Source of the DNA: Giardia intestinalis
Taxonomy: Eukaryota
Strand: one strand, 5' to 3'
DNA length: 64,000 nucleotides
Assembly: GCA_000002435.2 (NCBI GenBank)
Contig: CM018793.1
The position numbers were made by a program, and so were the translations under genes. This document shows, one piece after another, positions 3,218 through 24,275 of the stretch. Under the pieces are notes generated by a model. It was not told where the DNA came from. It made no database searches and saw only the letters and a program-made list of their open reading frames with translations. Positions within the stretch are counted from its first letter, which is position 1; every line of letters starts with the position of its first letter.

Positions 3218-5809
3218 CTAGTTTCGTCGAGCAGTCGCTTTCTTAGATATTCCTAACTTCTGATTACGCGTGTGTGAGCGAGCAATCCGATCCTTTTCGG
3301 CTCCACTACGAGCTCTCTTATTACGGACCCGCTGACTGTGCAAGAGCATAAGCATATTCTTTGTCGTCTTTTGCTTTTGTATGTTGGAAAGAGACTTGTT
3401 GGACTCTAGCTTACGCGCAATACTCTCTGCCCACCTACTTCCTTTGTGATCATTGGCACTTCTACCAGAATGAGCTAAAACGGTCTTCTCAGCGCGGGTG
3501 AGCTTCTTTCTGGGCAAAAAGCTCTCCAGATCGACTTCGTTCATGCGTGCAGGCGTGACGTATTCGCTTATCCGCGCTAGCTCCTCATCTGTTAGAAGTC
3601 TGCGAGACTGTAACGGAACATTAGAATCGTTCTCTCCAGCACTAGAGTCGGCCTCAGATCTATCTGCTGACTCTGCATCAACGAGAATGGCCCTCTTCTT
3701 TCCTCTCTTTCCTCTAATGATTCGTATGCACTTTCCGGGCTCACCTGATTCGGGCTCGATTGCGTCACCATCAATATTTTGTCCTTCGTCTTCTTCCTCC
3801 TCAGAATCTTGCTCCTTCGGGTTGCCATATTCATCTATTGGCCCAAAGAGCTCATTAATTCTCGTAAAGTAGCACTCTGGTATTGGTAAGCCTCTTTTCT
3901 TGCAATTTACCAGAATGTGACCCATCTTGTTCCGCTCCAGTTTCATCTTCTTCAGCTGGTGTTTCGATGGTGCTACCTCTTCTCCTTCGTCATCAGAGTA
4001 GGTTTCTTTTAGGAGTTTTGCAATGTTTCTCCTGGAGAAATCCGACGAATCAATCTTTTTGTTCGACAAAGGAACGCCGAACTTGGGAACCGCTTTCTGG
4101 TTTCCCATGAGTTGAGTAGTACCTGTCTTGTCTCTGGAACTAGTCTCCTCAAACTCTTCAATATCCTCCAGCTCTTCAAACTCTTCTAGTTCTTCCAAAT
4201 CTTCCAGCTCTTCTAATTCTTCAAGCTCTTCCATTTCCTCGGCACCATGATCATCTCCGTCGTCTTCTTCTCCTTCATCCTCAGTTACCTGGCCCTTTTG
4301 GGCCAACCTCTCGATAGCCTTGAGCTGGCGAACGACTTGTGCACTATCCCTATTCTGGAATCTCGCCTCAAGCTTGTCGGGCGCCTGCTCTCTATAAAAT
4401 TGTAGTAGACACCTTGCAGCAGTCATAACACCCCTACGAGTTTTGCTCGTTGTCTTGCATTTGCTGTTTTGGTATGACCGCGCGACGACTGCCTCCTTAG
4501 AATAACTTGCCAATTCATTAAGTAACTCGCATGCAGAGGGGTTTGCGATGAGCGCGTTTGGATTGCGCTTTGCCATCTCTGCAATAGCATTGAGACCAAC
4601 TGTCATTATATAGTCGGTGGACCCAGAGTGTATAAACTCATGGGCTATGACCTTCATAACGGCAAAAACTTCCTCGTCAAAAATGGCAGGATGAACGGAC
4701 GAGACCAGGTACTCCAGAATTTTGATGACATCCTTTTGCTGCGGCTTAAGGTACTTCATGTAGTAGCGGTAATAATTCTGAATCTCTAATGAGTGGTGCG
4801 CTATTATCTTGGATGTAACCTCAAATGTCAATAACTTTAGTTGAAACGAAGTGTTCCTGCCCAAGTACTTATGGCACAGTTTTTCTATGAACACATATGG
4901 ATCGCGAATGTTATCATATGGATGCCTTGATCCTGCATACGTCAGTTCTTTTTCTTCGTTGTTTTCATCCATTAGATTCTTCAGAGACTTTTGAGCTTTG
5001 GCAAGAGTTTTGTGCGTTTTCGTCTGGTTCCCAGCGAAGCTAGAAACAGCACGCAGGTGTCTTATTTTCGCCTTGAGTGCCTCTTTCTTCTCGTCCTTGG
5101 TTACTCCCTGATCATCTTCTTCCTCGTCTGAGTCCTTGGCTGCAGCTGTGTTTTCTAAAAGGAGAAAATGCAAGACTAACAATGATATGCGCTTATCATT
5201 GGAGTTTAGAAGGCTATCAAGAATGACAGACATCGTCCTTTCATTCTCCCACGCGTGCTTAGAGTACAGGTCACAGCATAGCTGTGTTAACTTAAATGCA
5301 AGAAGCGCGTTTCCGTCCCTCATCTTCATGTTAAAGAACGAAAGAATCTTCTGTGAAGCCCCTGTTTTACCGGCCTTGAACAGCTTTATGCAAGCATTCA
5401 GTAGATGGCTATAGACTAGCTGGCGAATTGGCTTATCGTGAATCCTCAAGAGTCCGCAGTAAAGGCTTAGGAGATTAGTATCTGTTAGGCTTAGGACGCC
5501 GCGTTTGACAAAGAGAATAAGGGTTTGGACAAGGGTTTGACGCAAAGGGGGTGACAAAAGGAGTGCAGACGATTCTGTAAATGTAATCAAGATGGGTATT
5601 AGCGAAGAATATATTGCATTGTACTGGGCAATACCTGAAAGGCGCGCAGTGAAGTTCAAGAGGTCAACGAATTCCTCCTCACTTGTCAGACTGGAGCTGC
5701 TCTGAATGAGCTCCAACTGGCTTCTGAGAACCAGCAGCTGTTTCTGCACCTCCTCAGCGTAGTTGGTGGGGTCTCGACATGCTTTAGAAGCCAAATCAAC
5801 TAACAGCAT
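3218..5809 (-). CDS. SDA1: SDA1-family protein (60S pre-ribosome export/maturation factor homolog)
   Basis: The N-terminal LASKACRDPTNYAEEV...LVQTLILFVKRGVL matches the SDA1 NUC130 region (LQNLIKRDP.SY..EF; R..LV.ALILLRNK). The middle ...NSKCKTTSKTRRGVMTAARCLLQFYREQAPDKL matches the SDA1-domain motif YKKSKDKGVVMAARSLIGLFREVNPELL. It also has an acidic EELEEL tract and a basic C-terminal tail. Confidence 0.65.
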   Translation of the reverse strand: MLLVDLASKACRDPTNYAEEVQKQLLVLRSQLELIQSSSSLTSEEEFVDLLNFTARLSGIAQYNAIYSSLIPILITFTESSALLLSPPLRQTLVQTLILFVKRGVLSLTDTNLLSLYCGLLRIHDKPIRQLVYSHLLNACIKLFKAGKTGASQKILSFFNMKMRDGNALLAFKLTQLCCDLYSKHAWENERTMSVILDSLLNSNDKRISLLVLHFLLLENTAAAKDSDEEEDDQGVTKDEKKEALKAKIRHLRAVSSFAGNQTKTHKTLAKAQKSLKNLMDENNEEKELTYAGSRHPYDNIRDPYVFIEKLCHKYLGRNTSFQLKLLTFEVTSKIIAHHSLEIQNYYRYYMKYLKPQQKDVIKILEYLVSSVHPAIFDEEVFAVMKVIAHEFIHSGSTDYIMTVGLNAIAEMAKRNPNALIANPSACELLNELASYSKEAVVARSYQNSKCKTTSKTRRGVMTAARCLLQFYREQAPDKLEARFQNRDSAQVVRQLKAIERLAQKGQVTEDEGEEDDGDDHGAEEMEELEELEELEDLEELEEFEELEDIEEFEETSSRDKTGTTQLMGNQKAVPKFGVPLSNKKIDSSDFSRRNIAKLLKETYSDDEGEEVAPSKHQLKKMKLERNKMGHILVNCKKRGLPIPECYFTRINELFGPIDEYGNPKEQDSEEEEDEGQNIDGDAIEPESGEPGKCIRIIRGKRGKKRAILVDAESADRSEADSSAGENDSNVPLQSRRLLTDEELARISEYVTPARMNEVDLESFLPRKKLTRAEKTVLAHSGRSANDHKGSRWAESIARKLESNKSLSNIQKQKTTKNMLMLLHSQRVRNKRARSGAEKDRIARSHTRNQKLGISKKATARRN
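4150..4245 (-). repeat. imperfect 9-bp tandem repeat encoding an acidic (EEL/EDL/EEF)n tract inside SDA1
   Basis: ctcttcaaa ctcttctag ttcttccaa atcttccag ctcttctaa ttcttcaag ctcttccat encodes EELEELEELEDLEELEEFEELEDIEEFEE on the coding strand. Confidence 0.6.
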
Positions 5810-8522: not shown

Positions 8523-11500
8523 ATGCATGAATTTTGTCTCGAAGCTACCCATAAAGTTTTGAGATACACTTCCGATGAGGAGGAGGATCTTCTTCGGGGC
8601 GTGTTTGCCATCAGGAAAGTCGATGAGGTGCTAGTGATGCTGCGAATTTTGGATTTCAGACAGCTTCCTCAGACCAGACGAACTGTTATGACAGCTAGAG
8701 TCAAGGCCAATCTGCGCTACCCAAGTCGGTATCTTACACAGATATACTCTCTTCAGGAAGCTCCAGACAAATCCAGGATCCTGATAGAGCTGTATCTGTC
8801 TACAAACAAAACGTTTGAATGCTTGCTAGTTGAGGATGTAATTTCTGTTGAGAGGGCTGTGAGGTTGATTTCTGACTTAGTGCATGGTACAGTTGAACTT
8901 CTAGACTATTATTTACAACGCAACGTTACCGTTACCCAGGATCTTCTCTGTAATGCAATCTTATTGCCCAGTACATTGTTTATTTTGCATGATGATACCA
9001 TACTTTTCCCGAATCCATGCATAGCTACACTCGATGCCGACTTGGGGTTTTCTAATAGGTTGCTTGAGCAAGAGCAATGGAAAAGATATGCACCACCAGA
9101 AATACATTTTTTGCTGTTAGACCGTGGCACAGAGCTATCTATCGACACTCTGGAGAAAGTCCTTACATGGTCTGTTGGTATGTTAGTGTCGGACCTTTAT
9201 TCTCTCGTAGAGGGATCAGACGGTATAGCTGACGCAATGGTCGATACCGTGTTCCCTGACCGATGCGCTATGCATTGTGATGTTCTTTGTCTTGTTCGAA
9301 AGATACTCTGCGCTTGCCTAGTAGAAGATCCTGCATCGCGGGCTGACTGTCAGACGCTTGCGATGAGTCTGGAAGCTGTCCAAAATATCCCGCAAGTTGT
9401 CTCCATTATTAATGCTTCAGAGCATTCAGTAGTTTCTATGAATACTAGTCTGATTTCGGATGAAGACAACTTTCTCATTCTTCCCAATGAATACTTATGC
9501 GTAGAAAGGCCGAGAGAGGATCATTTAGTTACTGCTATCCATGGTACACCAGGTTTTCATGATATTTTTGATGCTGATGATTACGCTGGCAGCATTTCAA
9601 GTGATTATTGGCAACTGGAAGATGAAGTGGCAGTACGACGGCATTCAATATCTTGCTATAAAAACGCACCTAATGAATCTGACTATTTTAACGAAGTCGA
9701 TATAAACGATAAGCGGTCACGATCTAAGTCAGACGCTTGGTCTCACAACTTAGCCGATAGCGCATTCCGCCGGTACATAGAGGCTGCTACCGTAGGACGT
9801 ACCGATTTAGTAGCTATCTATATCGGTAGGTGCTCCAGACAACAAGATATAGACGGTGGTACTGCTCTAATGGCAGCCACGAAAGGGGGAAAACATGAAT
9901 GTGTCTCTCTATTGGCACAGTGTGAAGCTGGCTTGCAAGATGTTCACGGACTATCGGCGCTAATGTATGCCGTGCTTCGAAGTGATGCTACATCTGTCCA
10001 ACTTCTTTGTACGGCCGAGTGTGGTCTGGTGGATGACAGAGGGATGACAGCTCTTATGCATGCGGTCGAGCAAGATTGCTATCAAGTGATTCATCTGCTT
10101 ATAGAAGAAGTTGCTATGATAAACACTAATCATATGAGCGCCTATGATATTGCCGTGAAGCTGGGGCACAACAGATGCACCATGATATTAGAACCATATG
10201 CACTGCAGCTCAGAGTACACCGTGTTGCACGCGTTAATAGCTATGGATACACAGCTTTAATGTTTGCCGCTATACAAAATGACGTTGCAACAGTGTGTCA
10301 GCTTGCTTCAGAAGAAGGAGGAGTAGTGGCAGAGGATGGTAGCACAGCTCTTTATGCTGCTATTCTGCATAACAACTACCTTTGTATACCACCTCTTCTA
10401 CGGTATGAACGATCTATAACGACACCTGATGGATCCACGCCGCTAGAGTTAGCAGAGAAGCTTAACCGCTATGAGTGCGCCCGTCTCTTGCGGAGCCCGG
10501 TTGTAAAAGGGTATCTTCCGATTGATACTGAGTCCTGTTTGATGAAGGAGGCAAGACACGGAGATCCAGAGCTTTTAAGAGCTCACTTGAATGAGGTTCT
10601 TTTAATGTCTGCTAGAGGTGAAACTGCCCTTATGATAGCCGCAGGTGCGGGAAGCTACAGGTGCGTAAAGGACCTATTGCAGTATGAGCAAGGGATGGTA
10701 TCTCCAACTGGCTGGACTGCTCTGATGTACGCGTCCATGAATGGACATTTAGACTGCGTTAGCTTGCTATGCGCCACTGAGGCGAGAATTACTAATACTC
10801 TCGGTCAATTAGCATATGATATTGCAGTGGAAAAAGGCCACAAGGCGTGTGCACGGTTTCTTTCTAAATATGAAGAGCATTTAACTGTTGCGTATCGGGT
10901 TGACGAACTTTTAGCTTTAGACCGTATAGGCGATGCGGTGAGACTACTCAAGCAGCCATTTGTGCTATCTGCAGCTCTTGTCAAATGTATTTGGAGCGTA
11001 CACGGGGGAGAATTTATGGTATTGTGGGGGGCTCTTCGAGCAAACGTGGACCTGACTATACTGGCCAAATATATCACTTTAGAAATGAGTGTTGACCTCA
11101 ATGATCCAGAGCTAACCGACCTTGTATTGAAAAGGAAAGCAGAGTATCAATTGGTCAGTGCAGGACAGAACAACTTAGAAAGTTTATTACATAAAGCTCT
11201 CTGTTCACAGAAATTTCTTGTTATTCCAGTTATCTGTGAGCATGCAATGACTAAGCGTAAGCGCATCTTTGTACAAAAGAGGGTTGGAAAAGCAGTCACC
11301 AGGAAAACAAGACTAATGATAGCAGCAGAGATTGGGGACCTTTCTGAAGTAGAGCAGAATCTTCAATACTTGTGTTTTCAATGTAAGGGTCTTTGCACTT
11401 TCCAAAGGAAGGAAGAGCGTCATTCTTTAGAGACTCATAATAAGACAGTCAGTAGCGTTACGGCTTTAATGCTTGCTGCTGCAAATGGACACAGGAACTG

Positions 11501-11723
11501 TGTTCCTGCTCTCCTTCCCGAACTAGGGCTACGGGACCAGGCATCTGGCACAACAGCTCTGATCCTTGCCCTTTGGTACGAAGATACTACTATTGTCCGC
11601 CTACTTCTTCCTGAGGCCAATATTGCTGATAACAGTGGTATGACTCCTTTAATGCATGCTTCTAAGAAAGATAACAAAAAATGTGCGCAATTACTTAAAT
11701 CATATTTGAAAGCAAAAGGATAA
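8523..11723 (+). CDS. ankyrin-repeat protein with an N-terminal degenerate NEK-like (pseudo)kinase region (Giardia 21.1/NEK family type)
   Basis: The N-terminal ~230 aa carry relic kinase motifs (LHDDTILFPNP, LDADLGFS, YAPPE) but lack a Gly loop and the VAIK Lys. At least 12 ankyrin repeats follow (G.TALM.A...GH...V.LL). Confidence 0.7.
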   Translation: MHEFCLEATHKVLRYTSDEEEDLLRGVFAIRKVDEVLVMLRILDFRQLPQTRRTVMTARVKANLRYPSRYLTQIYSLQEAPDKSRILIELYLSTNKTFECLLVEDVISVERAVRLISDLVHGTVELLDYYLQRNVTVTQDLLCNAILLPSTLFILHDDTILFPNPCIATLDADLGFSNRLLEQEQWKRYAPPEIHFLLLDRGTELSIDTLEKVLTWSVGMLVSDLYSLVEGSDGIADAMVDTVFPDRCAMHCDVLCLVRKILCACLVEDPASRADCQTLAMSLEAVQNIPQVVSIINASEHSVVSMNTSLISDEDNFLILPNEYLCVERPREDHLVTAIHGTPGFHDIFDADDYAGSISSDYWQLEDEVAVRRHSISCYKNAPNESDYFNEVDINDKRSRSKSDAWSHNLADSAFRRYIEAATVGRTDLVAIYIGRCSRQQDIDGGTALMAATKGGKHECVSLLAQCEAGLQDVHGLSALMYAVLRSDATSVQLLCTAECGLVDDRGMTALMHAVEQDCYQVIHLLIEEVAMINTNHMSAYDIAVKLGHNRCTMILEPYALQLRVHRVARVNSYGYTALMFAAIQNDVATVCQLASEEGGVVAEDGSTALYAAILHNNYLCIPPLLRYERSITTPDGSTPLELAEKLNRYECARLLRSPVVKGYLPIDTESCLMKEARHGDPELLRAHLNEVLLMSARGETALMIAAGAGSYRCVKDLLQYEQGMVSPTGWTALMYASMNGHLDCVSLLCATEARITNTLGQLAYDIAVEKGHKACARFLSKYEEHLTVAYRVDELLALDRIGDAVRLLKQPFVLSAALVKCIWSVHGGEFMVLWGALRANVDLTILAKYITLEMSVDLNDPELTDLVLKRKAEYQLVSAGQNNLESLLHKALCSQKFLVIPVICEHAMTKRKRIFVQKRVGKAVTRKTRLMIAAEIGDLSEVEQNLQYLCFQCKGLCTFQRKEERHSLETHNKTVSSVTALMLAAANGHRNCVPALLPELGLRDQASGTTALILALWYEDTTIVRLLLPEANIADNSGMTPLMHASKKDNKKCAQLLKSYLKAKG

Positions 11724-12379
11724 TACTGTAAGAGATTGTGTCTAAATTTATTGTATAATAACTCTATGAATACTTTATAATTGTTCTACTCAATATTAAT
11801 ATAAAAATGCATATTCTTGATGATCTGTGAAGGTATGGTAAGAAGCTGGTAGTTCTTACGTTTTACCAAAAAGCATCTTCAGTAAACCTAACTTATCCAT
11901 ATGCACGAATTCGAAGACTGCAAGTTGCGGCCTCAGCAGAACCCCCAGTCTTTTACAGAAGAGCTATAGACTGTCTGCAACCTCTTGGGATAATTTGTCT
12001 ATTTGCGCACTTCAGTACCCCATCCACGACGATGACCAGTAGACAGCAGCGACTCCTGCCTCGGACATAGCGCTAGATGCCGCCCAGCTCAGAACTCGTC
12101 AGCTAACATGTTCTACCCGAACGGAGGAGGCGCTTGGACAGCTGAGTGCAGAGGGAGCTATCTGCTAAGGTTATCCAATGGTTGTATCACCACGCACTCT
12201 TCCTTCATCGCTTCCATTTCTAAGACTCGCAGGAGAAGTCACAGACCCTATAGCAGCAGGGTAACGCTTGTTCAGACGATGCGCTCACCCCGCCCCTGAG
12301 CGTACTGGATGAATCGGTGCTGATCTTCTTGTCTCTAGTAGTTGACCCTGATCACTACAGCAGGTGTGGGCCTTGTATG

Positions 12380-12555
12380 GTGGTGGACCTTAGTAGTAGT
12401 TTACTCCACCCACCGGTTGCTTCCAGTGGTGTGCTGCTGGAGCCCTCGCCTGCGGGCGCTGTCCGCAAATCTCGCGAGTAAATTCCCGCTCAATTTTTGG
12501 CGATGTCCGGAGACGAGGGTTGGCTATGGAATATGATAATGACCACAGTAGTGGA
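12380..12555 (-). repeat. inverted copy of a retroelement 3'-end module (115-bp near-identical core ending in AGTAAAC)
   Basis: The reverse complement of 12397-12515 matches 15421-15549 with 1 mismatch over ~115 bp (ccaaccctcgtctccggacatcgccaaaaattgagcgggaatttactcgcgagatttgcggacagcgcccgcaggcgagggcYccagcagcacaccactggaagcaaccggtgggtggagtaaac). The flanks are ~70% similar for another ~60 bp. Confidence 0.75.
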
Positions 12556-12559
12556 AGGG

Positions 12560-15500
12560 AGGAGCTATTGCGTTCCTCGGTTGTTCCGCGGGCGTGCACA
12601 CAGCTGTACCTGAGGCGAAGGAGAGCCCGCGAGGACCCGATCCGCATTCTGAATGCAAGATCGTACCTCCGGGCCCCAGAGAGCAAGCCATGAGTTCCTG
12701 CTCGGGGGACCACTCCGAAGACATTTACTCTCTCAGCAGGACACACACGCTGGCTCTGTGGCCTGCCGTGCGAGAGCGCCAAGCAACTAACCGAGCACCT
12801 GAGAGAAGCAAATGATGACAGACACAGAGTACTAGGCGACGACAAACTGATCATTCCGTCTCACATACCGAACCAGACAGCTGCCATGCTCATCCACCAG
12901 GGGGCACGCATGATCGCGAGCATCGAACAGGCCGGGACTGGGGTAGCGCTCCCCGCTATCAGGGGCCTAGACGCCCTGGTGGGAAGCCCCAGAGGACTCA
13001 AGCAACACAGTAGAGCAGGCCCAGAGTAAGGCAGACCCAGACCCCGAGAAGGCGAGGCGCCGGATAGCAAACAGGGTGAGTAACGCGCTGAGCTTCGGAG
13101 CAGTTGCTAAGGCTCTCCGTGCCCTTGATGACACACCCATGGTAGACATCAAGCCGGAGAAAGCCAAGGCCGCCCTCAGCGCGCTACACCCGTGCGTCCT
13201 CCCGAAGGCTACGTTGGCCTTGACTACCCTCCATCGATGAACTCGACGGGGCTGGAGCCGGCAACCGAAGAAGAAATGAGGAAGGCCCTGTTGGGACTCT
13301 CAACAAGAAGGCCTCGGGCGTGTCTGGCCTCGGGCCGGTCCATCTCAAGGCGATGAAGCAGAACGACGACTGTGAAATGCCTCACGCAGGCGTACAACGA
13401 GCTGACCACCCACCCCGAGGCGATGTCCGACGTGATGGCCATGTTCGAGTTCCGGGCGATCCTCATCCCGAAGGAGTCCGACGGATACCCCGATCGCGAT
13501 AGGCGGACGGTCACGAACATCTTCCACCGCGTCCTGCTGAAGGGCTGATCAGGCATGCCAGCTACCTCTCATGCGAGCAGATCGCCCTCAAGCAGAACGC
13601 ATACGCGGTAGGCGTGAGGAGGGCCCACGAGCTCATCAGCAGGCCGGGGATGCACCCCGTCTCCCTCGACACAAAGAACGCCTTCAACTCCCTCCCAAGG
13701 GCGGAGGTCGTCAGAGCCCTGAACGAGGCGGGCGTCCCGAAGGTCCTGGTCGACTACATTAGGAACTTCCTCGAGCCGAGGCACAGCCGGGACGTGAAGT
13801 GCGAGGTCTGCGGCGTCCCCAGGGCGGCCCGCTCAGCACGCTCCTCTTCTGCATGGCCACCGAGCGCCTCCTGAGACGCCTCAAGGAGAGAGGCATCACC
13901 TTCCTTGCCTATGCAGACGACATCGTGGCGTTCCACGACGAGGGGTACCCGGCAGGCACGATAACACAGCAGGCCACGGTGGAGGCCGCCGCCATGGACC
14001 TGACGATCAGGAGCGACAAATGCAAGTCTACCATGGCGGGCGAGGAGGTGACCTTCCTCAACCACCCGGCGTCCCCTACTCCTGCAAGCTCCAAAGGCCA
14101 TCGCAGGTGCCGAGACTGCCCTGAGGAAGATCGAGAGAGCACCCATAACCATCCACCAGAAGCTCATCCTGCTGTCACTGTGTGGTCCCGATGGTGAACT
14201 ACGCCCCCCTGGTCGAGATAACATCGAACAAGGTGAACTACGAGGAGCTCGACAGACATCGCACAAGGCTTCAGCAAAATAACTAACAGAAGCTGCGATC
14301 GCCTGGTCGACTTCCTGGCGTACCCGAAGGAGAAGGGCGGCCCGGGCCTGCTCATGCCGGGGCTCTACCACGACGAGCTGCGGAGGGCATGGGCCTCCCT
14401 GGACGTCAACAAGGGGGCCAGAGACCCGGTGGAGCTGTCGGTGGACGGCCAGGCACTGCAAGGAAAGGGACCTACTCCAACCGCCTCCTCAGCCACACAC
14501 CAGCTTCCGGACAGAGCGGCGGCGTGCTGACCGAGGAGGAAAGGGCCCTGAAGGAGAAGGGCGATTCGATCATGGCGCAGACAAGAGGCACCTGCCCGGG
14601 CTGCCACACGGCAGACCCTCGACCACGACATGAACTGCCCGAAGACGGCGTGGACCAGGACCACGAGGCACGACACGATCGTCACGTGCCTGTACCTCCG
14701 CGTCTCAGGGAAGTTCAACGCAGAGCTGGAGGTCAAGACCCACAGCCACCTCAGCGACCAGAACCAGAAGCCCGACATCTGGCTCGTCGACAAGTGGAAG
14801 GCGATAGATGTGGGCGTCATCCAGCCCCGCCAGATGGATGCCTACTACAACGAGAAGGTCAAGAAGTACAGGGACGGGACGCTCCCGATCATCTACGGGA
14901 CAGACGGATCCCTCCACCCCAGTCCAAGGGGCACCTCGAGGAGCTCCACGTGGACCTCTGTCCGGGCTGCCTTCGCCATCGCCCACATGGCTGCAGAGGC
15001 GAACGAGCACCCGACGAAGCTGATCAGACGGGCCGGGCCGAAAGCCTGGCCACCCAGAGCGACCGTCTCCTGTCATCCTACTTCTGACAACCGAATGAGT
15101 CCATCCCCGGGACCTGTCGACAACGACCGAGAAGGGGCGCAAGACTGGACACACAACCGAGTTGAATCCCAACCAGAAGAGAAAGCCCCGCTAGCTGCTG
15201 CTGATATACATGGACAGTATTGAGAATGACAACAAAGACCAGAGCTTCACTCACCGTGAGGGGAGAACAAAGAGAGGTGCCCTAGTAGACCAGTGAGTCC
15301 ATGAGATGGCTTGATCTCCAAAAGGACCTATGTGCACATCCAGTCTAAGTGTACTCCTGTAGAATAGCCGAGGAACGCAATAGCTTCTCCCTACAACCGA
15401 TGTGATTATCGTTACGGTCCGTGACCAACCCTCGTCTCCGGACATCGCCAAAAATTGAGCGGGAATTTACTCGCGAGATTTGCGGACAGCGCCCGCAGGC

Positions 15501-15560
15501 GAGGGCCCCAGCAGCACACCACTGGAAGCAACCGGTGGGTGGAGTAAACCACCTTTGTGA
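12560..15560 (+). mobile_element. degenerate (frameshifted) R2-clade / GilM-GilT-GilD-like non-LTR retrotransposon: zinc finger, RT, CCHC + REL-endonuclease, 3'UTR
   Basis: Zinc-finger-like CGLPCESAKQLTEHLREANDDRH (~12762-12830). RT motifs VSLDTKNAFNSLPR (13659-13700), QGGPLSTLLFCMA and AYADDIV (13908-13922) sit in different frames. CPGC (14593-14604) and QTLDHDMNCPKTAWTRTTRHD (to ~14660) are split by a 1-nt frame change. Then KPDIWLVDKWKAIDVGV...EKVKKY (14768-14880) is the PD-(D/E)xK REL-endonuclease. The 3' module ends in AGTAAAC (15543-15549). GC-rich, with no continuous ORF. Confidence 0.7.
15368..15560 (+). repeat. direct-orientation copy of the retroelement 3'-end module (partner of 12380-12555)
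   Basis: See the inverted copy. Ends ggAGTAAACcacc, 14 nt before the AT-rich initiator of the ankyrin gene at 15574. Confidence 0.75.
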
Positions 15561-15573
15561 CCATGGAATAAAA

Positions 15574-16245
15574 ATGTCGTCTGTGGATGATTCAGATCAA
15601 CTCCTTCAGAAGCACGACTGCGCCCCGCCCCTTATGCCCGAGAAGGACACGAGCGAAGAGGGCGCAGGAAACCCAACTGAGCCTTCAGAAATGGATGATG
15701 AAGGCAGCGTGGACGAGAACGGCGTCACCACACTTATGAAGGCAGCCAGCAGAAACGACGTGGACGCGGTGAAGCGCTACATCCCTTATCAGGCAAGGAT
15801 GGTGGCGAGGTTTGTCAAGGCAGGGAGAGTAGAGATACGCGAAGGAACGGCACTGATGATCGCCGCGGTGCTTGGACACGTTGAGGCGGTGAAGCTGCTG
15901 ATGAAGCACGAGCGTTGCATGAGGAGCAGCAATGAGTACACGGCCCTCATGTGGGCGGCAGCAAATGGTCGCGCTGAGGTCGTGAGGCTACTCATGGAGG
16001 TTGAGGGTGGCATGCAGCAGGGCAAGGGCTGGACTGCTCTCGTCAGTGCAGCATACTTTGGTCGTCTGGACTGTGTCAAGTTACTGCTGGAGAAGGAGAG
16101 GGACATAGGCGGCTGGCCTGCTCTTTGCGTAGCTGATATGGAGGGTCATTCCGAGGTGGTGTCTCTTCTCGAGAGTGAGGGTATTGGACTGGAGGAGCCC
16201 TGTCTACGGATGTCGCCCAGAAAGGCCGTGAGTGAACGCGCCTAA
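15574..16245 (+). CDS. small ankyrin-repeat protein (224 aa)
   Basis: Start trimmed to ggaataaaaATGtcg (MSSVDDSDQ). The listed ORF start at 15421 runs through the retroelement repeat. It has 4-5 ankyrin repeats (TTLMKAASRNDVDAVK, TALMIAAVLGHVEAVKLL, TALMWAAANGRAEVVRLL, TALVSAAYFGRLDCVKLLL). GC-rich codon usage. Confidence 0.7.
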   Translation: MSSVDDSDQLLQKHDCAPPLMPEKDTSEEGAGNPTEPSEMDDEGSVDENGVTTLMKAASRNDVDAVKRYIPYQARMVARFVKAGRVEIREGTALMIAAVLGHVEAVKLLMKHERCMRSSNEYTALMWAAANGRAEVVRLLMEVEGGMQQGKGWTALVSAAYFGRLDCVKLLLEKERDIGGWPALCVADMEGHSEVVSLLESEGIGLEEPCLRMSPRKAVSERA

Positions 16246-16551
16246 CTGTTGGTTGCATCCGGCGGTGGATAGAATCTCCCTCCAGCTGTGCAGCAAACAG
16301 ACACCTCAATGAAGTGGTGGCTGTCAGTGAGGCACACAGCTGCCCGTTTCCGCAGAGGTCAGGGGGAGCAGGCCTTCTCACCCCCGGCCAGCACTGGAGC
16401 GCCAGTGGGTGAAACGGTCGCACGGGTGGCCTTCTTGCCCTTGATGCAGAAGCCCTCCGCAAGCATTGGACCACTACAGATATGTAGACACAAACCCCTG
16501 TGGAAACGGATCGTTTCCAAAACTGTAGATTACCAAAATAATAAAACCAGG

Positions 16552-18617
16552 ATGGACACTGCCTCGTCTGGGTCTGCAACGGTGGCTTTCAGTGCCCCGC
16601 AGTTCACCCCTAGGGAGCTCCACGAGCGGCTGGATGATGTGCTGGCCAAAGACCCCACAAGCACAATCTACTCTCTCGAAGCTATCTGGAGCTCGCTGTA
16701 AAGGTCATTCTACTAGATGGCCTGGACAAGAACAGCGCAGACGCCATCAGACTCGAGCTGGCCGCCCTCCCCGATCTCTCCCACCCAGGAGTCCTCAAGC
16801 ACCATCAAGTGGTCGAGGACGGGGGCTTCATCTACGTCGTTATGGACCGTCACGACAAGACCCTCGAGCGCCTCCTCGCTAAACACAAACGATGGAAGAA
16901 CCCTGTGCCCACCAAAGTGATCTTCTCTGCCATGAAGCAAATCGCCGCCGCCCTCGCCTACCTCCACGACCTCAGTGGGGCAAATACTAGGGGGCTTGTC
17001 CACTGCGACCTCAGGCCTGCCAACGTCCTCATCAGCGAAGACGGGGAGCGCTTCATCATCGCTGGCCTCGGCCTCTGCAGGAACGCCCTGAGATGCGGGA
17101 GCACCATTGCAGGCACGGCAGTATACATGGCCCCCGAGGTGCTCCTCCACAACGAGCCCAGCCCCGCCTCTGACGTGTGGAGCCTCGGGGTCATCCTCTA
17201 CGAGATGGCCACTCTGAGGAGACCGGACTTCCTAGAAGGTAAAGACCCAAAAGACGTCTTCGTCGACAGGTGGAGGCCGGACCTGAGCGGTGTCACTGAT
17301 GGCTTCATGCAGAGTGTTCTGGAGAGGATCTTTGTACTGGATCCTGGGAGGAGGCCGACGGCCAGGGAGCTGCACGAAACGTTCGCTACATTCGACATCC
17401 CAGTTGGTGAGCTGGGGGGTCAGTGCGTGATGCTGAAGTACGAATGCAGCTCCTTGAAGATTGCTTTGAATAATGCTAATGCTAGGATTGCTACTCTTGA
17501 GGCAGCCTTCAAGAGGAGATCAAGTGAGGCCGACGCCCTGGGACAGGAGCCCCGACTTAAGACCTCTGAGATTGACGCGCTTGAAGGCCGGATAAAAGCA
17601 CTGGAGGATAAGCTTGCACAATCCAGTAGTGGGATGAACACGAGTAGCCCCCAGAGCAACCTCTCCGCGCTGCCTCAACTGATATACGCTGCACACACGA
17701 ATGACATGGAGACTGTCCGGGTGCTACTTGAAGAGGGGGTCACCGGCCAGCGCGACGAGCGGGAGATGACGGCCCTCATGCACGCGGCCCAGCAGGGGCA
17801 CATTGGTCCCGTCAAGCTGCTTGTTAAAAAGCAAAAGGGTCTCAAAGATAAAAACGGCTGGACCGCGCTCATGCACGCTGCACATGAGAACCACCCTGAG
17901 GTAATTGAAATTCTCGTCCCTCATGAGCATGGGAAGAGGAACAAGAACGGCCGCACTGCTCTCATGATTGCCGCAGAGAATGACAGCGCAGAAGCTGCTT
18001 CTGTTCTGGCTCCGTACGAGGAGGACATGATCGACAGACAAGGCAACACGGCCCTGATCCTTGCGGCAGAGGCAGGACACGAAGCTGTGGTGGAGGCTCT
18101 CGACCCAACCGATGATAGGGGCGTCACAGCGCTCATGCGGGCCGCGAAACTAAACGACACATTAGCAGTAAGCGTACTTATACCCATCCAGAAGAAGCGA
18201 GCTGTATATGCTGGGACGGCGCTAATACAAGCAGCAATATGCGGCCGCGTAGAAGCAGTACGACTGCTGATGCCATATGAGAGCAGGGCACGGGATGGTT
18301 GTGGTGCGACCGCCCTCATGAAGGCGGCCTCTGAGAATCATGCAGAAGTAGTACAGCTGTTGATGGAGCGCGAAGGCTGCATGCTGGATGTCCGTGCCTT
18401 GCCCGCTATCGCGCACGCAGCGTATGGCGGCCACTTAGAGATAGTGAAGCTGCTATTTGAAAAGGAGGGGCATCTAATAGACAAGTCTGACGAATCCCTC
18501 TTTGGTAAGCTTGAGGCTAAGGGCTACTCTGAGATAGCATCCTTCCTTAGGGACAGCCGTATACCGGGCGCCGACGACTGCAACGATCACCAAGCTGCTT
18601 CACGATCTCACGAGTAA
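16552..18617 (+). CDS. NEK-like kinase-domain protein with C-terminal ankyrin repeats; predicted pseudokinase, with an apparent frame break near 16640-16700
   Basis: Initiator aaataataaaaccaggATGgac. Frame 1 reads MDTASS...PRELHERLDDVLAKDPTSTIYSLEAIWSSL* (stop at 16701). Frame 3 continues ...LAVKVILLDGL...LELAALPDLSHPGVLKHH...FIYVVMDRHDKTLERLL...HCDLRPANVL...IIAGLGLC...YMAPEV...DVWSLGVILYEM. That gives beta3 Lys, alphaC Glu, an HCD loop and G-L-G in place of DFG. A coiled coil and >=7 ankyrin repeats follow. The intact listed ORF is 16809..18617. Confidence 0.6.
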
Positions 18618-18778: not shown

Positions 18779-19537
18779 ATGGCACTTATTGAGGCGGCCA
18801 AGGAGAACAGGCTGGACTACGTCAGGGCCCACAAGGCCGCGGACGCAGGCCAGAGGGACGCAGACGGGAAGACGGCGCTCATGTGGGCCGCCGAGGCCGG
18901 GCACACCGCCGTCGCCCTGGAGCTGGTCGACGCAGAGGCGGGCCTGGTCTCGAACGACGGGTCCTTCGCGCTGATCGCGGCGGCAAAGAGGGGGAACCTC
19001 GAGCTGATCCAGGCCCTTTTCGAGAAGGAGGGGAGGCTGCGGGACGCCGGCAAGCTCTCCGCCCTCAACCACGCCTCCAGGGCGAAGCAGTTCGAGGCGG
19101 CCAAGGTCCTCCGGCTGAAGACCATCGAGACGATGGACGCGGCGATGCTGGAGCAGCTCCGCCAGAGGGTCGCGGCCACCTACACCGAGATGGCCAAGAA
19201 GTCGCAGCAGGCCGAGGTCAAGAGCCACAACATGGCCATCTTCCGCTCGTTCTTCGAGGCGTTCTACTCCCTCTCCTGCTCGGGGATCGACCAGGGGGCG
19301 GAGATCTCGGAGGAGCAGCTGAACAAGTCCCTCGAGAAGTGCCTGGGCGAGATCCGCAAGCTCCTCAACTCGAAGAAGTACACGAAGTGCGTGAAGTGCC
19401 GCGCCAACGCCCCCAACCTGGTCTGCATGCCGTGCAAGCACTACGTCCTCTGCAAGGACTGCGGGAAGGACGTGGCCAGCAAGGTCTGTCCTGCTTGCAA
19501 CAAGCCGGTCGAGGAGTTCATGGAGGTCTTCAAGTAA
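18779..19537 (+). CDS. ankyrin-repeat protein with a C-terminal RING-type (C3HC4-like) zinc finger; putative E3 ligase
   Basis: 3-4 ankyrin repeats (KTALMWAAEAGHTAVALEL, SFALIAAAKRGNLELIQAL), a coiled segment, then CVKCRANAPNLVCMPCKHYVLCKDCGKDVASKVCPACNKPV (IAP/MIB-type RING spacing). GC-rich. Confidence 0.7.
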   Translation: MALIEAAKENRLDYVRAHKAADAGQRDADGKTALMWAAEAGHTAVALELVDAEAGLVSNDGSFALIAAAKRGNLELIQALFEKEGRLRDAGKLSALNHASRAKQFEAAKVLRLKTIETMDAAMLEQLRQRVAATYTEMAKKSQQAEVKSHNMAIFRSFFEAFYSLSCSGIDQGAEISEEQLNKSLEKCLGEIRKLLNSKKYTKCVKCRANAPNLVCMPCKHYVLCKDCGKDVASKVCPACNKPVEEFMEVFK

Positions 19538-19539
19538 AC
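19533..19539 (+). terminator. polyadenylation signal AGTAAAC overlapping the stop
   Basis: ttcaAGTAAACgc; TAA at 19535-19537. Confidence 0.6.
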
Positions 19540-19829
19540 GCTAAGAGGCGCTCCACGCACTGCAGATGTCCACCTAGTCGGGGCTCACCAGTAGGATTGC
19601 TTTGGCAGCTGCGCCACGAACCACACAGGACGGAGACGCGGTGATTGGCGCAGCCTCAGAAGGAGCCAGCGGACGCGACCCGTGACAGTCTGACAGGACC
19701 AGATTTGTGAAGACGTCTGCCTCTGCAAGCCCCTCCACCCAGCGGCCGTAGCCGAGACCCACCCTGGCCCTCTTTCCCATCAGTCCACCCAGACAAGGCT
19801 TACTGTAGAACCGATGCTTCCCGCTGTTC

Positions 19830-22206
19830 AGTGTATTTGTTTGGCTAAAGACACGCGGGTCCTTTTCAGATGCGGCTGCAGGGCCATCCCGCGTGGAGCT
19901 GGGAGAGCGCAACGGCCTCCTCCGCCGCGTACTGCTCCGGGGCGTCGGCAGGCTGCTCTCGTAGAGCCAGCCGTGGTGGGCCAGCGCCAGCCGTCCTCGC
20001 TGCACGGGCTTATGGAGAGCTGGTAGATGAGCCTCGTCAGGTGCTCGCGGAAGGCGGGGAGGCCCTGCAGCTCGAACACCCCGTATATGCGCGAGTAGTC
20101 CCCGCCGCGAGAGCAGTATGTGCTTGGCGATCTTCAGAAGCACGACGATGGACGAAAGGTTGTTGACCTTGGACAGCTGGTACCCTGGGAAGTTGCACGT
20201 GAGCGTGCCCGCCGTGTTTATGTTGGCGGGGTTGTTGGTGCTATTGTCTCCGCGCAGGAACTCCATCAGGTTGGCCAGGTTGTTCGGGATGTACGCCATC
20301 GGCGGCCTGGAGCCCCCACCCGGGACGCTCTGCGCCGCGGCCCCTGGCTGGCCGCCGTGCTGGACGGCTGCAGGATGTGCGAGACGTAGCCGTAGAAGCA
20401 GCGCGACGCCGTCAGCAGGCAGAACAGCCGCCTGCCGCTCGCCAGGCTGTGGAGGGGCCTCGCGGGGCCTAGCGCCGGGTCCGGCGGGGCGCCCTGCTTG
20501 GCGGGCCTGGCCTGCAGGAGGAGAAGGATGTGGAGGCAGCTCTTCAGCACAGACTCCCGGACGTGCTGCGTGGACGATGGGGTGTTGTTGGAGAACGCGC
20601 CCTTCTCAGCGTCCTTCGTCGTGCCCGCAGCCGCCTTGGCCGACAGGACCGTCTCGAGCATGTGGGGGACCCCGCACAGCGCCAGGCGGAGCAGCGACGA
20701 GAGGAACGCCGGCATGTCGACCTCCCGGTTCAGGTGGTAGAGCTGGTGCCCCAGGACGCAGTCGGCCTCGTTGGAAATGCCGACGAGCATCGCCTGCTGG
20801 ACGTCCAGGGGGAGCGCGTAGGCGAGCACATTGACCAGCTCGTGGTACTTGATGCTGCGGAACCGCTCCTCGTGGTAGTTGAAGGACAGCACCTTCTCTA
20901 TGCACCGCTCGAAGTAGGGCAGATTGCCCTTCGCACCCGGCCTCCCCGAGAACGGGAAGGACGCGGTCAGCCCCCGCTTGACCCTGTTGAGGTACATGCG
21001 GTAGTCGCCGGTGGCCACCGCGTTGCCGAGGGTGCGCTCCAGCTCGGCGTCGTGCCCGCCGCCCAGGTCGCTCCGACCGCCGACAGAGGTCTCCTGGGAG
21101 CGCGACACGACGGACTCTCTGGCGTCGCAGCTGTACCGCATGGCCATGTACCCCCCGTGGAGGTCTGCCAGGGACTGCAGGCCGATCCGCACGTCCGGCC
21201 CGGGGAGCGGCTGGAAGAGCCCCGGGCGCCGCCTGTTGGGCTGGGGGCGTTGAAGGCTGTCATGACGCTTGCACACTCTGCTATCTGGTCTGCGACGCCC
21301 TTGTCGGCGTAGGGGAGACGTTGCCGGACGAGAAGGGGGCGTCCTTCGGCCTGAACGAGCCCTCGAAGAACCGCAGCAGGGCCGCGACAGACGAGGACGT
21401 GGGGTTGACGTAGCCACGAAAGCGCGGGGGCGGAAGCCGCTTGACGGTCTTGATCGCGCAAGACCCGGCGCTGCCCTGCTCCTCCAGGGCCATCCTGCGG
21501 ATGCTCCGGCACTTCCGGGCCTGCTTGTGGTCGCCCAGCGGGCCCAGGAGGAGGAGGAGCGCCTGTCTCAGCAGGGCCACCGGGCGGCAGCAAGCCACGC
21601 AGCGGGCGATCGCGTTGTTGAAGGTGTTGTTGTGCGGGCCCGCGTCTGCCTGGATCAGCTTGGAGAGTAGGAGCGCAAGGGGGTGGACCAGAGCCCTGAC
21701 GAAGCCTTCGAAGGTGTGGAGGTAGGGCGAGCAGTCGACTGAGCCGTCCAGGCGATCGTAGACGGTGTGCTCGAAGACGGTGACCCCCCGCAGGTTCAGG
21801 GAGGCCAGCACGAGATGCAGGACCTGGATGCAGTGGGTCAGGGGAGGCGGGAGCTGCTTGCTTGCGTTCTGCGTCGACTCCGCCCTCAAGTCCGAGAGGG
21901 AGACCGCGCACTCGCCGGGACGCCGAACCGCTTGAGGACCTGCCTGAAAAGGGAGCCGCCGTTGTGGAGGAAGAGGAGGAGCGCCCGCCTCGCCTCGTCG
22001 GCGCCCAGCTCGTCCTCGAAGAGCGAGAGGAACGACTCGCTGAGCTCGTAGATCGCCGGCTCCACGTCCGACCACACGACCGAGAGCGGGGCGGTCGTCC
22101 GGTCCCAGTCCAGGCTTCCGTCCCCCATGTTTGCGTTTTCTGGCCCCGCGTGTCCCTCTGCCCCAATCCATAGGGCCATGGGCTTGAGCAGACGAGAGCC
22201 GCCCAT
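19830..22206 (-). pseudogene. GC-rich gene of unknown function disrupted by >=4 frame changes (pseudogene, or assembly indels)
   Basis: Protein-like segments lie end to end on the minus strand but in different frames: 21886..22206 (MALWIGAEGHAG...ELSESFLSLFEDELGADEARRALLLFLHNGGSLFRQVLKRFG); 21281..~21900 (...THCIQVLHLVLASLNLRGVTVFEHTVYDRLDG...NNAIARCVACCRPVALLRQALLLLLGP...); ~21230-21300 (LPYADKGVADQIAECASVMTAFNAP); 20266..~21230 (...GNLPYFERCIEKVLSFNYHEERFRSIKYHELVNVLAYALPLDVQQAMLVGISNEADCVLGHQLYHLNRE...CLHILLLLQARPAKQ...); 19830..~20300 (MAYIPNNLANLMEFLRGDN...SSIVVLLKIAKHILLSRRGLLAHIRGVFELQGLPAFREHLTRLIYQLSISP). Confidence 0.4.
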
Positions 22207-24275
22207 TCATCCTCTACTATACGTTTCCACGGATGGCACCGTTCGCGGCAGGGGCACTGAAGCCTCAGGCGTTCCTCTCTGCCAACAACCATGAACTACG
22301 GTAAGGTTCTGACTAGGCTGGAAGGCGCTCTGGCGGTGGCACGGGCAACTGCTAGACCCACCCGCATCGGCCTCTGGTCATGAAGGCGAGCTGGCCCTTC
22401 CTTGGTGTGTCCTCCATACTAGTGGGACTTGCCGCGCTTCCCCCTCACGTGCAGCCAAAGGCCATGGCCGACGTCCGCACTGGTCATATAGCCGACCTCT
22501 GTGACTCTGGTGGCAGCGTGCTTGCTCGCTTATTCCGCGAGGCATGGGCATGGTAGTTACCGGCCTTGCTGCACAGCTCTTGACGGCGCCTTCCAGCCAT
22601 TGCATCGGCCAGCTGTGCTACTTACAAGAAGCTCGCGCGCGTTCCCAACGTTGCAGCGACGCACGCTTGATCCCCGGCGGTGATTACTTTCATTAGTGGT
22701 GGTGCCCGCTCCGTCTCTAATCTAGTGTCGAACACACCAAGGATACGGCGGCGCCACTCACGTTGCCGACGACCGCTTTATCCTGGCTTCTCAGATTGAA
22801 GGAGTGCTCTTGCTGGGCGTGGGCTCCCACGCTCCCCTTCATGGCCTCCTGGCCCTGTGCAATCTCTTCCTGGAGGACGGGGTGCTGCTGCGCGCGATGT
22901 CGTGCACGGCATGTCGCCGAAGCAATAGCAGGGCTGCGCAATCATGCATCCACTTGGTGGGCTACATGACTTGGCCCGCCATGCTTCTCTGTGCCTTCTT
23001 GTCAGTGCTAAGCGGGCACCCTTACGACGGCCAGCGCCTATGCGGCTGCGTGTCCATTCAATATATTTGCTCGCGTCCTTGCCGGTTTACCGTACTTGGT
23101 CTCCTCATTGAGCTCTGCAATTGCCAGCTGCCACAGAGCGAGGCAGGTTCTTACTCTGCCCGAGGGCGATTATTGTGGGAAGCTCCATGCAAAGAACGAC
23201 TCCACAGCGGCTCAGTTTGTTATATGGACAGCGGGCAACCCGAGTTATTCGTGGGGGAGACAGTGCCACAGACACATACCCTCTTCTCTCAATTCTAACG
23301 AGCAATCTTACAAGACCAGAAACAGAAGATTGCTGTCCATGAGGGCGGCTCTAAACTGCTCGGCGCATACAATGCACTCGAGAAGAGGCCTCCTGAAGAT
23401 GTGCTGGTAGGTGCGGAATCGGACGGTCCGATCGAGACGCCGTCCCTGGCAGCCACTGGTTCTCCTAGGGGCGACGAGCCCCATGCCCCCGATGGACTCC
23501 CACTTCCAAAGCCCCAGCCAGCAACGTCTGGTGCCTCCAAGTGCTCCTCTCAAACTAGCCAGTTACCTTATTGCACTGAGGCTAGTTTGTCAGCTGTTGC
23601 CTGACCAGGTCCTCCATGCGAGCCACCGCCGCCCTAGGTTGACAACCTCTCGCTCGTTCACTAGCTGAGACCCAGAATCCGAAAGTCGGATGTCGTCCAG
23701 TTCTGACGGGGAAGATTTATGCCCCCTCCCTCGAGGTGATAGCGAATGCAGATGAGCGTTCGAGGCTGGTAATGGCACCAATCACTCGCCCCGCTTGTCG
23801 AGACGGACCCACACGTGACCTATGTGAATCCCTCGACGGGCAAGTTGGGGCCCCTGGGGTGCTTGGCTGACAGAGGCGGACGAGTCCTGGCTGCCCACAA
23901 CCAGCCGGCGGAAGGGGAGGTCCTAGAAGGCCCTGCGAGAAGCACAGCAGCTCCCAAGAGGATAGGGCAAACCTTCTTCTTCTCCCACGGGGATCTAGGA
24001 CATCCGGCTCTCGGGTCTCGGAAGGTGAGCGGGAGGTCCACTCAGAGCGATGGCTCGCATGGAGAGATTTACTTAGATAGCAAATGATAAGCCCCATCTC
24101 AGTGAAACAGAGAGTAAATGGATTACTTGGACAGCGACTAGCAGATCAACCTCGATACCCCATTGGTACAGTTGACTATACGCTTAAGTAAATCTCTCCA
24201 TGCTTACCACAACAGGAACTTAACTTGTACTAATGTTCATCAGTATATAAGAACACAACATCAATCTGCAGTAAT

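Follow-up and report, generated by a model that had tools for sequence, protein, structure and literature searches.

The dead family of retrotransposons without long terminal repeats (non-LTR) of Giardia was reportedly named GilD by Arkhipova and Morrison in 2001 and Genie 2 by Burke et al. in 2002; the latter reportedly also found that every Genie 2 copy has inverted repeats, which reach 172 bp. Three retrotransposon families are reported from Giardia WB: GilM and GilT, which are intact and lie at telomeres, and the dead GilD (PMC10999387; PMC2861651), which is disrupted by microhomology-mediated deletions and found near genes for variant-specific surface proteins (VSPs) (PMC2861651). The chromosome-scale WB reference carries annotated reverse transcriptase (RT) pseudogenes, four of which lie between divergent duplicated VSP pairs, and GilM, with a length of 5,474 bp, occupies tandem arrays near the telomeres (PMC7000408). 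A diplomonad-specific lineage is known as the ‘Genie’ clade (PMC2790886). Here we analyzed a 64,000-nt stretch of Giardia contig CM018793.1 (assembly GCA_000002435.2), referred to below as the window, and found at 12400-15548, on the plus strand, an element that is very probably a decayed and immobile fossil of GilD/Genie 2.

The element resembled GilD/Genie 2 in its Giardia host, in the dispersed, chromosome-internal position of its copies, in having terminal inverted repeats, as reported for Genie 2, and in the annotation of RT pseudogenes in WB. Frameshifts together with deletions, both small and large and in some cases with microhomology, had inactivated all sampled copies. The differences were confined to the lack of a VSP gene next to the window copy, whereas the other copies are VSP-adjacent, and to the length of the terminal repeat, which measured 204 nt; nothing conflicting with GilD/Genie 2 was found. 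With GilM and GilT (Genie 1) the element shared the host, a single open reading frame (ORF) running from RT through a CCHC motif to a restriction-like endonuclease, the lack of poly-A and a diplomonad RT lineage. However, these two families are intact and stand in head-to-tail subtelomeric arrays of units of about 5.5 kb, and neither is known to have a terminal inverted repeat. Their proteins would be about one-third identical to those of the window family, if the other Giardia RTs that we compared are, as presumed, GilM and GilT.

An initial annotation, made from the letters alone, had placed the element in the R2 clade. The order characteristic of R2 (N-terminal zinc fingers, RT, CCHC motif and PD-(D/E)XK-type endonuclease) was present, and when a full-length homologue, P0006, was compared with solved structures, the R2 proteins 9nl2, 9nl3 and 9dou were the top matches (E~1e-10 over the RT). 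However, an exhaustive HMMER search of 1.84 billion representatives found the nearest relatives outside the family among the RT/endonucleases of G. duodenalis, Spironucleus salmonicida and Hexamita inflata (28-35% identity, 160-215 bits, versus about 42 bits for the RT of R2). Because even these relatives are no more than 28-35% identical, the family is distinct from other Giardia RT lineages. R2 is specific for 28S ribosomal DNA and lacks a terminal inverted repeat, whereas the copies studied here stand at unrelated sites among protein-coding genes, so that this is not R2 in the strict sense. By sequence comparison the lineage is the Giardia ‘Genie’, R2-like in architecture only.

Anatomy of the element at 12400-15548

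The element is a 3.15-kb non-LTR retrotransposon remnant of Giardia duodenalis assemblage A. The host followed from a 1066-aa ORF upstream, which is 100% identical to a G. duodenalis protein, ‘Ankyrin repeat protein 1’, encoded on a contig of 4.0 Mb, and 80% identical to its orthologue in assemblage E (P15). The chromosome-internal Giardia locus proposed in the initial annotation was borne out. G+C was 0.60-0.66 within the element and 0.35-0.47 immediately upstream. A scan of 11700-16300 against Rfam gave no match at E<=1.

We compared four assemblage-A copies, namely, the window copy and three paralogues from isolate DH (assemblage A2), L002, L003 and L011. The B-type sequences were L001, from assemblage B, and the full-length contigs L008 (a metagenome contig from ENA) and L009. 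L002 880-4064 aligned to window 12396-15558 (90%) and L011 8030-11116 to window 12400-15525 (86%); the alignment of L003 9193-12296 to the window unit was ended by the edge of the L003 contig. All three paralogues thus matched the window over the whole unit, terminal arms included, at 86-90% identity, and nowhere past it. Since their flanks are unrelated and homology ends at the unit termini, the element is a discrete 3.15-kb mobile unit. The initial annotation was right in calling it about 3 kb long and shorter than its full-length relatives, which reach about 5.4 kb in assemblage B. Its bounds, 12560-15560, had to be corrected, because the start so chosen falls inside a 204-nt terminal inverted repeat that had gone unnoticed.

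The coding remnant occupies 12604-15087 and matches residues ~775-1548 of the 1548-aa ORF P0006 of B-type contig L008. At the nucleotide level, window 12608-15088 was 75% identical to L001 965-3462 (blastn), and the remnant also matched L008 2437-4984. In a three-frame translation of 12380-15570 it was legible only by switching among all three frames: the longest ORF crossing the region had at most 235 aa, and translation guided by the assemblage-B ORF met 32 broken codons. The window copy codes for no functional protein and cannot move on its own. Stitched together, the remnant gave a conceptual protein of 838 aa that had only three matches among 5.8 billion proteins, all from Giardia: GSB_155064 of assemblage B (69% identity), whose cluster includes P0006, and DHA2_154256 and DHA2_152589 of assemblage A2. 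Against Giardia proteins, the stitched ORF scored E=2e-284.

The peptides quoted in the initial annotation were all present, in the order and frames given there, and the succession of zinc-finger-like motif, RT, CCHC motif and restriction-like endonuclease over three frames was confirmed. The zinc-finger-like motif CGLPCESAKQLTEHLREANDDRH (12757-12825, frame 1) was ancestrally C-x2-C-x12-H-x8-H; the full-length protein has at least three Cys/His motifs, of which this one comes last. It is the one N-terminal motif of its kind in the window, and it is degenerate, the first Cys of the ancestral CxxC having been lost (RWLC, versus CWLC in L003 and CWIC in assemblage B), whereas P0006 has at least three CCH[HC] motifs.

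The RT core (13456-14040) is spread over three frames and comprises the remnant of ‘YRPIAIGE’, VSLDTKNAFNSLPR (13659-13700, frame 0), QGGPLSTLLFCMA (13820-13858, frame 2) and AYADDIV (13907-13927, frame 2). A two-frame stitch of this core matched Pfam RVT_1 with E=1.7e-20, and P0006 did so with E=2e-26. The description as a dead non-LTR retrotransposon was upheld. Given the RT profile score and the match of the stitched ORF to Giardia proteins, the quoted motif set lies far beyond chance.

Downstream of the RT, the CCHC motif CPGCHTA-TLDHDMNC (14593-14650) is broken at about 14612, where CPGCHT (14593-14610, frame 1) gives way to QTLDHDMNCPKTAWTRTTRHD (14612-14674, frame 2). The frame change that the initial annotation had noticed between CPGC and QTLDH is therefore real, although it is due to a deletion of 2 nt and not to a shift of one. 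The restriction-like endonuclease motifs KPD...D...K..KY (14768-14869) have stayed in one frame, frame 2, within a 197-aa ORF at 14630-15223: KPDIWLVDKWKAIDVGVIQPR covers 14768-14830 and EKVKKY 14852-14869, the whole reading KPD...IDVGV...EKVKKY. A unique 3′ untranslated part (15088-15348) follows, and then the 3′ arm of the terminal repeat (15349-15548), which is the native 3′ end, ...GGTGGGTGGAGTAAA, without poly-A. At 15541-15549 the 3′ terminus reads ...GGAGTAAAC.

Terminal inverted repeat and short form

A repeat search and blastn (E=3e-68) revealed a terminal inverted repeat of 204 nt, with arms at 12396-12599 and 15349-15552 that are 87% complementary. Its termini read TTTACTCC at 12400 and GGAGTAAA at 15548. 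Over the outer ~126 nt (12400-12525 on the 5′ side) only a single position distinguishes the arms; a block of 40 nt (12526-12565 in the 5′ arm, ‘variant A’) is strongly divergent, its first three nucleotides being an ATG in frame with the ORF remnant; and an inner block of about 34 nt (12566-12599) is conserved again. The two arms could pair near-perfectly over about 125 nt.

The polarity of the repeat was given by assemblage B. Window 15420-15522 aligned in the same orientation to the 3′ untranslated region (UTR) of L001 (3891-3989), which identifies the 3′ arm as the native 3′ end; the 5′ arm (12400-12599) is an inverted copy of the element’s own 3′ end. The full-length B-type contigs L008 and L009 also carry an inverted 3′-end copy, directly upstream of the ATG (267); L008 106-239, read as its reverse complement, was 98% identical to L001 3889-3989. 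The repeat was thus found in the window, L002, L003 and L011, and its 5′ inverted copy in L008 and L009, at a length of 204 nt in assemblage A and about 130 nt in assemblage B. Since the full-length contigs have it too, it is a feature of the family, and the most unusual one. For the same reason, we discarded the idea that the 5′ arm was a mere by-product of truncation of the window copy. A special constraint on the arms was ruled out as well, the arms of L011 being 73-79% identical, versus 94% for the body. Two exact-pattern scans of JGI metagenome contigs with conserved arm sequences gave 0 matches.

Inverted sequence at the 5′ end of a retroelement, made during reverse transcription, is also known from the ‘twin priming’ of L1 and from Penelope-like elements. 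However, in twin priming an internal segment is turned around, the 3′ end is not duplicated and the event is an accident of each insertion, whereas here an inverted copy of the 3′ end is fixed in full-length and short members alike.

All four assemblage-A copies lack what corresponds to L008 ~240-2436, i.e., the first ~775 codons or about 2.2 kb, including two Cys/His motifs. Metagenome contig L010 was 89% identical to window 12599-12661 and then ran upstream into the N-terminal ORF, which puts the short form’s breakpoint near 12595. The short length is therefore a specific form common to the four copies, with the inverted 3′ end fused to the ORF, and not an ordinary 5′ truncation. It could have arisen by an internal deletion in a full-length ancestor that already had the 204-nt repeat; alternatively, it could reflect a one-step template switch of the RT onto the nascent complementary DNA (cDNA).

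The B-type copies L008 (267-4913), L009 and L001 keep an ORF of up to 1548 aa, in which the RT is intact, the CCHC motif is present and additional Cys/His motifs stand at the N-terminus. They are nonetheless dead, because deletions of 1 nt and 2 nt scramble the endonuclease ‘IQPRQMDAYYNEKVKKYRDG’ block; this local double frameshift was the sole ORF lesion seen. In one fragment, P0055, the endonuclease K..KY block is in frame. The family is far less decayed in assemblage B, where it is either much younger or only recently dead, and it may have been active there recently.

The 40-nt variable block (window 12526-12565 and 15383-15422) occurs in two discrete versions, A and B. The window has version A in the 5′ arm and B in the 3′ arm, and the reverse was seen in L002 (1010-1050 and 3890-3930), in L011 and in the 3′ arm of L003. 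If recombination at the inner conserved blocks had inverted the body once, the swap would be accounted for.

The inverted repeat of L002 is longer, 909 bp (163-1069 versus 3869-4773), and reaches 717 bp past the element termini, entering the 3′ end of a VSP gene (…CRGKA*) on both sides. Identity was 97% in these flanks and 89% in the arms, implying that the duplication of the flanks is younger than the element. This flank-extended repeat fits the report of inverted VSP pairs with an RT remnant between them (PMC7000408).

Family assignment, decay and spread

The initial annotation had called the element GilD-like, and elimination and anatomy supported the name: of the three families in WB, two are intact and sit at telomeres, and the window element is dead and dispersed, differs from the other Giardia RT lineages and has inverted repeats at its ends. 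That it might instead be a degenerate copy of one of the two intact telomeric families seems very improbable. The host and the domain order are indeed the same, and the initial annotation had grouped the three families together. However, the other Giardia RT/endonucleases, which are presumed (unconfirmed) to be GilM and GilT, were only 33-35% identical over the RT; GilM forms subtelomeric tandem arrays of a 5,474-bp unit (PMC7000408), whereas the window unit is dispersed and inverted-repeat-bounded and has near-full-length assemblage-B relatives of its own.

Some observations weigh against a fossil of GilD/Genie 2. The name came from elimination and anatomy, as opposed to alignment with a deposited consensus. 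The likeness of the endonuclease to R2 appears at the level of motifs only: the CCHC and KPD regions of P0006 were weakly colinear with R2 proteins, and the endonuclease domain, with an i-E of 2.4e2, was not significant alone. The window copy adjoins a housekeeping cluster and stands between ankyrin and NEK genes, not VSP genes. No convincing target-site duplication was found at the window element, only a weak, offset resemblance of ACCTTnGT on its two sides, and the orthologous interval of assemblage E (P15) offered no clean empty site, being filled by unrelated sequence. As for the VSPs, the paralogues L001, L002, L003 and L011 do have VSP neighbors, and VSP adjacency is a tendency of the family and not a strict criterion.

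Alignment of the four assemblage-A copies with the assemblage-B reference, a comparison suggested by the initial annotation, allowed us to place the indels. Four frameshifting deletions, at 12673, 12709, 13203 and 13488, were common to all four copies (4/4); the last of these ruins the RT ‘YRPIAIGE’ block, which becomes ‘YPDRDRR’, as seen in the DH proteins too. Eight others were private to the window copy: deletions of 1 nt at 13290, 13816, 14920 and 15030, of 2 nt at 13371 and 14177, of 5 nt at 14087, and of 22 nt at 14518 (14518-14519), the latter bounded by GCG(A/G)CG microhomology, in agreement with what has been published on GilD (PMC2861651). Look-ups of the exact products of two in-element ORFs, which could have shown the private lesions in independent assemblies, returned no record.

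Such lesions leave hardly any room for the reading that the element is alive and its frame breaks are errors of sequencing or assembly. The intact motif order is all that speaks for it, whereas the four frameshifts and the 2.2-kb loss recur in three copies of an independently sequenced isolate (DH), the eight further deletions include some of 5 nt and 22 nt that are untypical of sequencing errors, and the copy lacks the start codon of the full-length ORF as well as two of its zinc fingers.

Since at least four frameshifts are common to all four copies, the common ancestor of the short form was already dead, and hence the short form multiplied after its death. Divergence at codon positions 1, 2 and 3 was 20/14/42% between A and B copies and about 6/6/10%, close to neutral, among A copies. 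A signature of purifying selection was thus seen only between A and B, meaning that these lineages parted while functional and that the A copies parted essentially as pseudogenes.

The ORF body (12608-15088) was ~94% identical in every A pair, whereas the unique 3′ UTR (15089-15348) was only ~85% identical in all pairs. Moreover, frameshifting indels were shared by the window and L011 (13505, 13542, 14612), by L002 and L011 (13347, 13973, 14276) and by the window and L003 (12988, 12997), and these pairings are mutually incompatible. This combination suggests ectopic gene conversion among the dead A copies, over the ORF.

How a dead unit came to spread is a separate matter. The live family encoded a single long protein with N-terminal zinc fingers, RT, CCHC motif and restriction-like endonuclease, and, by analogy with R2, would have inserted by target-primed reverse transcription. 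In the short form an inverted 3′-end copy is joined to the ORF some 775 codons in. Already dead, this form spread as a discrete unit, whether through copying in trans by a relative then active or through movement and homogenization at the DNA level, and after arrival at its locus the window copy has decayed further through small deletions, in part microhomology-bounded.

Between the two routes, the discrete termini common to the copies favor copying in trans by a relative then active, and we give roughly even credence to trans-mobilization with later conversion. Multiplication purely at the DNA level (ectopic recombination, gene conversion or segmental duplication, aided by the inverted repeats) concerns the spread step only and is a plausible but less probable route. 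It would accommodate the incompatible sharing of indels, the uniform identity of the body next to the lower one of the 3′ UTR, the variable arm blocks swapped in the window relative to L002 and L011, and the repeat of L002 that goes 717 bp into flanks 97% identical. However, homology between loci ends at the element termini, as expected for insertion of a discrete unit and not for segmental duplication; the case is built on four copies only, and recurrence could account for some of the shared 1-2-nt indels, which fall within short homopolymer runs.

A use of the remnant by the host looks unlikely. The arms of a read-through transcript might fold into a duplex that feeds Dicer, or the 3′ arm might act on expression of the ankyrin gene downstream. 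The almost perfect pairing of the arms over ~125 nt, the making of small RNAs from retrotransposon transcripts in Giardia (PMC10999387; PMC2875222) and the position of the element, which abuts the downstream ATG, would all suit such a role. However, the arms are not consistently better kept than the body, as L011 illustrates (73-79% versus 94%), and the assemblage-E orthologue of the downstream gene does without the element.

More speculatively, and with a somewhat better though still low chance of being correct, the repeat may be a working part of the retrotransposon itself and not an accident. The ends of its RNA or first-strand cDNA would pair as a panhandle, and fold-back would build inverted VSP pairs. 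If so, the panhandle would explain why both ends are kept and why decay proceeds by internal deletion instead of 5′ truncation. If the 3′ end of the cDNA snapped back, or the DNA itself folded back, the flanking DNA could be copied in inverted orientation, which is how inverted VSP pairs centered on an RT remnant, as seen in L002 and reported for WB by Xu et al. in 2020 (PMC7000408), would arise. A ‘dead’ retrotransposon family would then have helped to build the repertoire of antigenic-variation genes.

The window element is of a known kind, from a family described in 2001-2002 and a class of RT pseudogenes already annotated in the WB reference, and as the fossil of a described family it matters little in itself. 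More is to be gained from its relatives. B-type genomes and metagenomes keep near-full-length copies, which provide the complete 1548-aa protein, its extra zinc fingers and the repeat in a full-length element. The descent of the assemblage-A copies from a short form that was dead before them, and their mosaic sharing of lesions, point to trans-mobilization, ectopic gene conversion or both; how Giardia recombines is a matter of debate. Finally, some copies are at the center of inverted VSP duplications. These results could interest specialists of Giardia and of transposons.

The insertion locus and its neighbors

The element begins 676 bp past the stop codon of the upstream ankyrin-repeat gene (8523-11723), and its 3′ end falls 26 bp short of the start codon (ATG, 15575) of an ankyrin gene that encodes 223 aa (15575-16245). 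Assemblage E (P15) aligned to the window up to 12363 and again from 15569; the interval in between (L012 14242-16708) is an unrelated, GC-rich sequence of 2.47 kb that lacks RT similarity, long ORFs and inverted repeats. In a B-type strain (the tail of L013), the end of a VSP-like gene was found downstream of the orthologous upstream gene. The interval between the conserved flanking genes is therefore a local hotspot of structural change, differing in every assemblage examined. Positional orthology with the assemblage-B copy L001 was considered and dropped, as the only match downstream was a short NEK-like one and the NEK and ankyrin families are large.

Four Logan short-read contigs of the upstream gene (L004-L007) ended 312-705 bp past the gene, at window 12035-12428. 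The longest, L004, extended into the 5′ arm as far as ~12428, as would be expected if assembly broke off at the repeat; the others ended earlier, in unique flank. These contigs gave no independent sequence beyond window 12428.

Farther downstream, an ORF on the plus strand at 16809-18617 encodes an NEK-type kinase with ankyrin repeats. It starts with GTG, and its match to the Pkinase profile begins only at position 67. Similarity to other loci extends upstream of this ORF (16677-16790). The true N-terminus either lies in another frame or has been lost.

At 19500-22300, where G+C rises to 0.63-0.70, long overlapping ORFs (241-441 aa) were present on both strands, with no Pfam matches. This segment may represent a single hypothetical gene accompanied by shadow ORFs, or else a further degenerate sequence.

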